Source of the DNA: Promethearchaeia archaeon
GTDB lineage: Archaea > Asgardarchaeota > Lokiarchaeia > Sigyniarchaeales > SOKP01
Reading direction: 5' to 3'
Length of the DNA: 38,253 nucleotides
NCBI GenBank assembly: GCA_029856155.1
Contig: JAHQWL010000051.1
Location: 1-38,253, forward strand
Part shown: in pieces, positions 31,628-31,944 of the stretch
Numbering within the stretch: the first letter of the stretch is position 1
Layout: the number at the start of each line of letters is the position of its first letter
Notes under the pieces: generated by a model
Seen by the model: the letters and a program-made list of their open reading frames with translations, nothing else
What the model was told of the DNA's origin: nothing
The model's database searches: none
Program-made: the position numbers and the translations under genes

Positions 31628-31787
31628 TTTTTTGAACTTCAACTTAGTATTTTTTAAGGAACACTTAAAGATAAGTAAGAACGGGTAAAAATCCTTATGG
31701 TTATAATTATATTTTACAATTTAAAAACACACATTACAATCATTAATACGTTGAAAATGGAAAAACTAAAAAAAAATCAATGATTAA

Positions 31788-31822
31788 TTTTTATATAATA
31801 TTAGTAAAATTTTCTAATAGAA
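31788..31822 (+). promoter_or_regulatory. Putative TATA box (TTTTTATATA) of tRNA-Cys with downstream TTCTAATAGAA palindrome
   Basis: TATA-like element at 31788-31797, about 45 nt upstream of the tRNA; palindrome at 31812-31822. Confidence 0.4.
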
Positions 31823-31839
31823 TACAATAGTTATTCAGT

Positions 31840-31923
31840 GCCAGCGTATCCTAGTAGTTAAGGAGGCGGCCTGCAGAGCCGTTGCTTTTAGCGTCATGGG
31901 TGCAAATCCCATCGCTGGCTCCA
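31840..31923 (+). tRNA. tRNA-Cys(GCA) with long variable arm and encoded CCA
   Basis: Acceptor GCCAGCG/CGCTGGC, D stem TCCT/AGGA, anticodon stem GCGGC/GCCGT with loop CT-GCA-GA, 13-nt variable region TGCTTTTAGCGTC, T stem ATGGG/CCCAT, discriminator T, then CCA. Confidence 0.93.
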
Positions 31924-31944
31924 TTTTTTATCTTTATTTTTTTT
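31924..31944 (+). terminator. Oligo(T) archaeal terminator after tRNA-Cys
   Basis: T6 immediately after CCA, followed by a T8 run. Confidence 0.5.

Follow-up and report, generated by a model that had tools for sequence, protein, structure and literature searches.

A tRNA-Cys gene with a long variable arm and an A18/G55 elbow in a Promethearchaeia genome

The canonical archaeal tRNA-Cys is a class I molecule, charged by CysRS and, where SepRS is present, by that enzyme as well. CysRS is itself one of the class I synthetases, which by textbook geometry do not contact the variable side of the tRNA. A long variable arm is the marker of tRNA-Leu, tRNA-Ser and tRNA-Sec, together with bacterial tRNA-Tyr, and the contact between G18 and Psi55 is among the most conserved tertiary contacts in tRNA. 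The selC* tRNA-Cys molecules of bacteria are tRNA-Sec-like, possess a long arm, U73 and in many cases a GCA anticodon, and are charged by CysRS; they have an 8/4 geometry, in which A51a is bulged and the anticodon stem is long, and often occur with dedicated SelB*/CysRS* genes (Mukai et al. 2017 NAR, PMC5389517; PMC7609411). In Methanosarcina mazei some tRNA-Cys isoacceptors are reportedly favoured by SepRS and others by CysRS (discussed in PMC8762117). Surveys of cysteine encoding that include Asgard archaea (PMC5424206, PMC8762117, PMC9499178) are silent on both long-arm tRNA-Cys and an A18/G55 pair, as is a paper on recoding in Asgard archaea, and no report of either in an archaeon was found in the literature searched, the coverage of which was incomplete.

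Here we describe a tRNA-Cys gene that has both features. It lies in the window, by which we mean the whole stretch of 38,253 nucleotides that was analysed (contig C51), and the assembly that contains it, from a Loki-type Asgard archaeon (Promethearchaeota), comprises 4.1 Mb in 104 contigs, with an estimated completeness of 97% and 5.7% contamination. The gene is the sole ARAGORN call in the window and is also recognized by Rfam RF00005 (56.2 bits, E 1.2e-9; gathering cut-off 29), the alignment of which treats the extra nucleotides of the molecule as inserted within the variable region. The features of the locus are as follows.

31770..31799, + strand: A-run and TATA-like box, 41-70 nt before the gene; likely archaeal promoter region
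31840..31923, + strand: tRNA-Cys(GCA) gene, 84 nt, with the CCA encoded (ARAGORN; Rfam RF00005)
31853..31860, + strand: D loop of 8 nt, AGUAGUUA, with A31856 in the position of G18 and G31857 as G19 (homology numbering)
31873..31875, + strand: anticodon GCA, followed by G37 at 31876 (sequence, ARAGORN; alignment of 100 genes)
31883..31895, + strand: variable region of 13 nt, with a 4-bp stem (outer pair U-G), a 3-nt loop and then UC (fold; 18 arm variants)
31901..31907, + strand: T loop UGCAAAU, with G31902 in the position of U55 (sequence reading)
31920, + strand: discriminator U73 (sequence; T in 100 of 100 aligned genes)
31924..31929, + strand: run of six T directly 3' of the CCA; likely transcription stop

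Read directly, the sequence gives a 7-bp acceptor stem that begins with G1-C72 and is followed by U8 and A9, a 4-bp D stem with U10-A25, a 5-bp anticodon stem closing the loop CUGCAGA, which contains GCA and G37, and a 5-bp T stem. The identity set of tRNA-Cys (GCA, U73 and G37) is thus complete, and each element named in an earlier, sequence-only reading of this DNA, namely an 84-nt tRNA with GCA, G37, U73, G1-C72 and U10-A25, was found in its place. The presence of a long-arm, A18/G55 tRNA-Cys is confirmed. Among 100 aligned tRNA-Cys genes of relatives the anticodon is invariant and G37 is found in 99, the exception being A37 in G051. The same reading had cited the encoded CCA, a TATA box and a T-run as signs of function. 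The CCA and the six T residues are indeed present, and the A-run and TATA-like box recur about as far upstream in nine species of the genus, the flanks of which otherwise diverge; the encoded CCA is not conserved among relatives. The behaviour of archaeal RNA polymerase at oligo-T runs is known and is the basis for reading the six T residues as a stop. The gene is probably transcribed from its own promoter, and the conserved upstream box could serve as a promoter model for the tRNA genes of this group.

The minimum free energy fold of the window's tRNA-Cys is a cloverleaf with a 3-bp hairpin in the variable region, which a U44-G pair would bring to 4 bp. Since the single-sequence fold is unexceptional (z = -1.6), the case for the arm rests on comparison. 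About 120 tRNA-Cys genes were recovered by searching the DNA of 60 relatives and by applying a covariance model to 150 genomes of the class; the best hits were fetched, and covariation was assessed in a model-guided alignment of the 100 genes. In this alignment 93.6% of the cells are paired, a value to be compared with 84.3% in shuffled alignments and reached by none of 500 shuffles. Slid controls all fell far below the real alignment, and in 14 pairs both sides have changed. A long variable region is present in 46 rows and comes in 18 distinct versions, every one of which forms a stem of 3-4 bp, with compensatory changes among them. The first pair of the arm is U-A or U-G, the second is G-C with one case of G-U, the third is C-G, G-C or U-A and the fourth is U-A or C-G. 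The loops contain 3-4 nt, GNRA tetraloops among them, the length of the arm is kept at 10-12 nt, and two nucleotides, the second of them C48, always follow on its 3' side. On this comparative evidence the arm is a real, conserved structural helix. The molecule has what defines class II structurally, a variable region of more than 10 nt (here 13) with an evolutionarily kept stem-loop of 3-4 bp, although its Cys anticodon and U73 set it apart from the amino acid identities of that class (Leu, Ser, Sec and bacterial Tyr).

The arm and the A18/G55 elbow are conserved among relatives and recur in several genera of the window's family as well as in another family of the order. The proposal of a lineage-specific tRNA-Cys architecture is therefore supported by conservation and covariation. 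This is so for the lineage; the architecture is not, however, fixed in the genus, because congeners of the window's organism carry short-arm G55 and short-arm C18/U55 forms at the syntenic locus.

Assignment of the elbow nucleotides requires some care, because the choice between A18-G19 and G18-U19 depends on how the D loop is numbered and one sequence cannot decide it. Genes of the same family whose backbone is near-identical and whose D loop is likewise 8 nt long carry GG at positions 4-5 of that loop and also a UUC T loop, and for this reason we read the D loop of the window's gene as A18 G19. Based on this numbering, the combination A18+G55 was counted 76 times, C18+U55 11 times, G18+U55 10 times and a mixed form never, the count covering 98 genes with a D loop parsed by script and one gene (G041) read by eye. 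Put differently, A18 accompanies G55 in all 76 script-parsed G55 genes, and G or C occupies position 18 in all 21 genes with U55. On a tree of RpoA1, positions 18 and 55 each change 8 times, always jointly. The independent pairs are concordant in 5 of 5 cases on well-supported branches and in 8 of 8 on all branches, with a sign test value of p = 0.0625 for the five pairs, the lowest attainable with five. The suggestion that both partners of the contact changed together agrees with what is seen in about 100 genes. Because whole-gene replacement is common in this group (see below), the coupling of 18 with 55 may in part be linkage.

The change is specific to tRNA-Cys. G55 is found only in this molecule among the 26 tRNAs of the genome with a parsed T loop, the other 25 of which have U55. 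The only other T-loop oddity among the 26 is a C in place of U54 in a tRNA-Thr(CGU) (G000 contig C5:6736-6843). For the altered elbow itself we infer an A-G contact chemistry at 18-55. Since G19 and C56 are both retained in the window's tRNA-Cys, the elbow should still have its outer stacking platform.

A second question is whether the extra nucleotides persist in the mature molecule or are removed after transcription in the manner of an intron, leaving a class I tRNA. Introns abound in the tRNA-Cys genes of relatives, where their positions are 33/34, 37/38, the D loop, the T loop and the junction of the variable region with the T stem, and this lends the idea some initial appeal. These real introns are 27-34 nt long, whereas the extra length of the arm is only 7-9 nt. 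A scan for BHB motifs (a 4-bp central helix and two 3-nt bulges) recovered the 33/34 introns of three relatives, which served as positive controls, and found in the window's gene no motif that would excise only the arm. When the scan was relaxed to three of four central pairs, one arm variant yielded a 7-nt candidate in 7 of the 46 rows; the candidate is missing from the window's gene and from most arm variants, all four central pairs are formed in none, and the match was set aside as the hairpin itself misread. The constant length of the arm (10-12 nt) and its stem with compensatory changes and GNRA loops are typical of a structural hairpin rather than of an intron. Excision of the arm, which the earlier reading had named as an outcome that would overturn it, is therefore very unlikely, and is not given a probability of zero because the scan is imperfect: under the strict setting it missed three control 37/38 introns and is thus not exhaustive. 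The reading we prefer is that the 13-nt variable hairpin is kept in the mature tRNA and that no splicing would be needed to produce it.

A separate observation concerns short-arm C18/U55 tRNA-Cys genes (G020, L024:1406-1530; also L029, L124 and L138). These genes contain a second intron, at the junction of the variable region with the T stem, and in G020 that intron holds a duplicate of the T loop and the 5' T-stem strand seen in the G55 form, which looks like the leftover of a partial gene replacement.

A second tRNA-Cys was also sought. None was found in this 97%-complete genome by ARAGORN with and without introns or with RF00005, by a covariance model built from tRNA-Cys genes, or by BLAST with seven other tRNA-Cys forms of relatives. 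A 20-nt match on contig C52 that could have marked a hidden second copy turned out to be a tRNA-Leu(UAA) with an intron. This tRNA-Leu gene (G000 contig C52, about 71260-71385), in which a long variable arm is combined with a D-region insertion, escapes ARAGORN in intron mode too, from which it follows that the tRNA set of the genome is under-called; introns split many of its tRNA genes. The inventory of tRNA-Cys genes that had been called for thus leaves the window's gene as the only one detected.

An inventory of the relevant enzymes, also suggested earlier, was carried out. The genome encodes a full-length CysRS (TIGR00435, 498 bits, no stops; G000 contig C70:913-2325, which is L031:913-2325), SerRS, a SepSecS that adjoins the gene for tRNA-Sec and a PSTK-like gene with a score of 156 bits, under the family cut-off of 290. 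SepRS (sepS) was not found in the genome: the best profile match, at 67 bits, is PheRS-like, and tblastn with the SepRS of a congener detects only the same PheRS-like stretch, with 31% identity, and no remnant. For SepCysS (pscS) the best score in the genome was 27 bits against a cut-off of 365, and no remnant was seen either. With neither sepS nor pscS found at 97% completeness, the indirect SepRS-SepCysS pathway is not apparent in this organism.

This inventory bears directly on a speculative route that the sequence-only reading had put forward, in which SerRS charges the tRNA, a PSTK-like kinase converts Ser to Sep, and SepCysS completes the synthesis of Cys. More generally, the arm might recruit SerRS, with Cys (or Sec) then made on the tRNA by way of the PSTK-like kinase and a PLP enzyme. 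The comparison of the arm with a Ser-type arm was fair, since the arms of the genome's tRNA-Ser are similar in size and the arm therefore falls in the Ser-type size class, and SerRS, the PSTK-like gene (with the weak score already noted) and SepSecS are all present. However, because no SepCysS was found, the route from Ser through Sep to Cys lacks its last enzyme. Substrates of archaeal SerRS are identified by a G73 discriminator together with the long arm, and the tRNA-Ser(GCU) and tRNA-Ser(CGA) of this genome do have G73, whereas U73 is invariant in the 100 tRNA-Cys genes. Nor does the molecule resemble tRNA-Sec or selC*, which are marked by a 9/4 or 8/4 acceptor/T geometry and an extended D stem: its own geometry is 7/5, its D stem has 4 bp and its second acceptor pair is C2-G71, while the genome's own tRNA-Sec (C44) is 9/4. 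Further, a full CysRS is available, and a tRNA that is the sole tRNA-Cys must serve every Cys codon. A link between the arm and the Sec machinery was also considered and dropped as uninformative, for SepSecS is nearly universal in the class (142 of 151 genomes) and occurs irrespective of the form of tRNA-Cys. Taken with the failure to find SepRS, these observations tell against the indirect route as proposed, and recruitment of SerRS as the reason for the arm is exceedingly improbable. Some recognition by SerRS is conceivable, given the tRNA-Ser-like size of the arm.

Instead, the gene in the window is most probably a working, sole tRNA-Cys that retains its arm and is an ordinary substrate for CysRS. 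Cysteine would be attached directly by the class I CysRS by way of GCA, U73 and G37. The arm would then be a lineage-variable structural insertion, probably tolerated since class I synthetases approach from the side opposite the variable region, and the A18/G55 pair would be an older remodelling of the 18-55 elbow, order-wide and specific to tRNA-Cys, in which G19-C56 has been kept.

The CysRS proteins fall into two lineages. The CysRS of the window's genome (type A, the members of which show at least 73% identity in a search of 150 genomes) is only 39% identical to the enzyme that is encoded beside tRNA-Cys in a congener (type B; L020:1585-3021). In the 150-genome protein search type A was restricted to the SepRS-less crown of the window's genus and all other genera had type B, which is 37-47% identical to type A. 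Two congeners, G015 and G020, keep both types. The closest relatives of type A outside the phylum are in DPANN archaea (55-58% identity), and this suggests that type A was acquired by transfer and replaced the resident enzyme. No type B cysS gene or remnant was found in the window's genome. Long-arm molecules are the sole detected tRNA-Cys in genomes with either CysRS lineage, so that the arm cannot be tied to one of them. This coexistence of a sole long-arm tRNA-Cys with two types of CysRS is what would be expected if the synthetase leaves the variable side unread.

In at least 27 long-arm genomes, drawn from three other genera and one congener, the tRNA gene lies 25-55 nt upstream of the type B cysS or is divergent from it at a distance of 110-180 nt, and the same arrangement is found with most short-arm forms. 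Against our main reading it must be said that this adjacency comes from relatives; in the window's genome tRNA-Cys and cysS are unlinked. The neighbours of the tRNA-Cys in the window are ordinary metabolic genes, and an origin of the locus in a mobile element was rejected, as the window contains no integrase and no duplicated tRNA end.

SepRS, although not found in the window's genome, is present in 58 of the 151 genomes of the class, and a second, canonical tRNA-Cys with a GG D loop and a UUC T loop is usual in such genomes. By BLAST the canonical form was located in 33 genomes, 30 of which have SepRS. Within the window's family the long arm is found in 47 genomes without SepRS and in 3 with it, and the short-arm G55 form in 3 without SepRS and in 28 with it. 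At first sight these numbers suggest that the arm is a consequence of the loss of SepRS. A phylogenetic test on an RpoA1 tree of 81 genomes gave a minimum of 11 changes for the arm and 7 for SepRS, and of the independent pairs only about 2 are concordant and 0-1 discordant, the remainder showing no difference (p between 0.5 and 1). Two other families run contrary to the proposal, since a basal family combines the long arm with SepRS (3 of 3 genomes) and a sister family has the short arm without SepRS (5 of 5), and it was rejected. Because the independent contrasts are so few and the basal and sister families show these patterns, the association appears to be mostly the shared ancestry of two large crowns, and the link between arm and SepRS is weak.

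The three exceptions within the family merit description. In G143 a SepRS fragment at the end of contig C13 (L157:1-861) contains an in-frame TAG at a position where relatives have a Trp codon; this may be a decaying gene, or the TAG may be read through. G133 has a canonical second tRNA-Cys with a T-loop intron (L148, contig C468:1986-2093), which ARAGORN misses, and the third exception is a genome of 72% completeness. Two long-arm genomes with SepRS, G133 and G041, have a second class I tRNA-Cys; none was found in three others, G128, G039 and G043, which are 72-88% complete.

A feature of the RpoA1 tree that bears on the history of the locus is the frequency with which the form of the gene changes. 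Arm state flips at least 11 times among 80 genomes, and three forms of tRNA-Cys occupy the same locus within the window's genus. G015, with a long arm, and G020, with a short-arm C18/U55 gene that contains two introns, are sisters on the tree, with branches of 0.016 each, and their 3-kb tRNA-cysS loci align from end to end with 81% identity. The window's locus, in turn, is syntenic with short-arm C18/U55 genes of three congeners. Eleven changes of arm state among 80 genomes suggest that the gene has been replaced at its locus, through recombination or transfer, and has not drifted slowly.

Two irregularities were noted in RpoA1 itself. The RpoA1 genes of G067, G139, G017, G128 and G143 (L206, L222, L236, L191 and L224) are about 30 nt longer than the others and contain 1-3 internal stops, which may reflect mini-introns in a protein-coding gene or sequencing artefacts. 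Those of G056, G095, G149 and G141 are split in frame by about 1.5 kb, as by inteins.

The distribution of SepRS and of the canonical tRNA raises another explanation, in which the arm and the altered elbow have been selected, either to mark a CysRS-dedicated tRNA-Cys apart from the canonical one that serves SepRS/SepCysS/SepCysE or, in the case of the arm, to stabilize a core weakened by A18/G55. Relatives with SepRS usually have two tRNA-Cys genes, an A18/G55 form beside cysS and a canonical form; the latter coincides closely with SepRS, mixed states at 18/55 were never seen in any of the independent pairs, and the isoacceptors reported for Methanosarcina mazei, with their SepRS or CysRS preferences, provide a precedent. 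On the other hand, the arm is commonest where SepRS and the canonical tRNA are gone and so is not needed for discrimination there, genomes of the sister family that have no SepRS rely on a short-arm A18/G55 form as their sole tRNA-Cys, and frequent whole-gene replacement could produce part of the coupling by linkage. Two single-contig genomes of the sister family have this short-arm A18/G55 form, so that cultured Loki-type strains probably carry it too. We consider selection of this kind distinctly unlikely. A related and still rather doubtful proposal is that Promethearchaeota possess two insulated routes to Cys-tRNA, with the canonical tRNA used by SepRS/SepCysS and the A18/G55 tRNA beside cysS used by CysRS. 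SepCysE, the helper of SepCysS, may grip the elbow of the canonical tRNA, and the arm may be a further divergence of the CysRS line. If this were true, A18/G55 would be a naturally occurring pair that functions in place of the near-universal G18-Psi55, and the long-arm form would be the first plain 7/5 tRNA-Cys of class II type.

Under the reading that we favour, in which CysRS charges a sole and ordinary tRNA-Cys, an essential single-copy molecule breaks the rules for both the variable arm and the elbow, and this would mean that the core of a tRNA can change where the synthetase does not read that face. Such genes offer a natural test bed for the function of the elbow, with A-G replacing G-Psi, and candidate parts for the design of orthogonal tRNAs. 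They also call for caution with isotype callers, which may mislabel them. Because a canonical tRNA-Cys accompanies SepRS in relatives, the long-standing question of cross-talk between the two routes to Cys, direct and indirect, becomes testable in the archaea closest to eukaryotes.

As a whole, the gene is best regarded as a new structural form of tRNA-Cys, and it may be placed among the known systems as follows. With the canonical archaeal tRNA-Cys(GCA) it shares GCA, U73, G37, G1-C72, the 7/5 geometry, G15, C48 and a cognate CysRS; it differs in its paired variable region of 13 nt rather than 4-5 nt, in A18/G55 and in the U-A pair at 10-25. The tRNA-Ser molecules of its own genome, like the window's tRNA-Cys, are 84 nt long and have an arm of about 4 bp with a loop of 3-4 nt followed by UC. 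However, the discriminator of tRNA-Ser is G73, an unpaired U precedes its arm, and its D loop has GG and its T loop UUC, whereas in the window's tRNA-Cys the discriminator is U73 and the arm is stacked directly after position 43. The case of two isoacceptors for two charging systems is paralleled by the relatives with SepRS, which likewise have two distinct tRNA-Cys; the isoacceptors in that case are ordinary class I molecules, while the window's genome has one tRNA-Cys and one system. The nearest described molecule is the bacterial selC* tRNA-Cys, which combines Cys identity with a long variable arm, as the window's does, and is charged by CysRS. Unlike selC*, the tRNA-Cys described here is archaeal and a plain 7/5 cloverleaf, and no such partner genes were seen with it.
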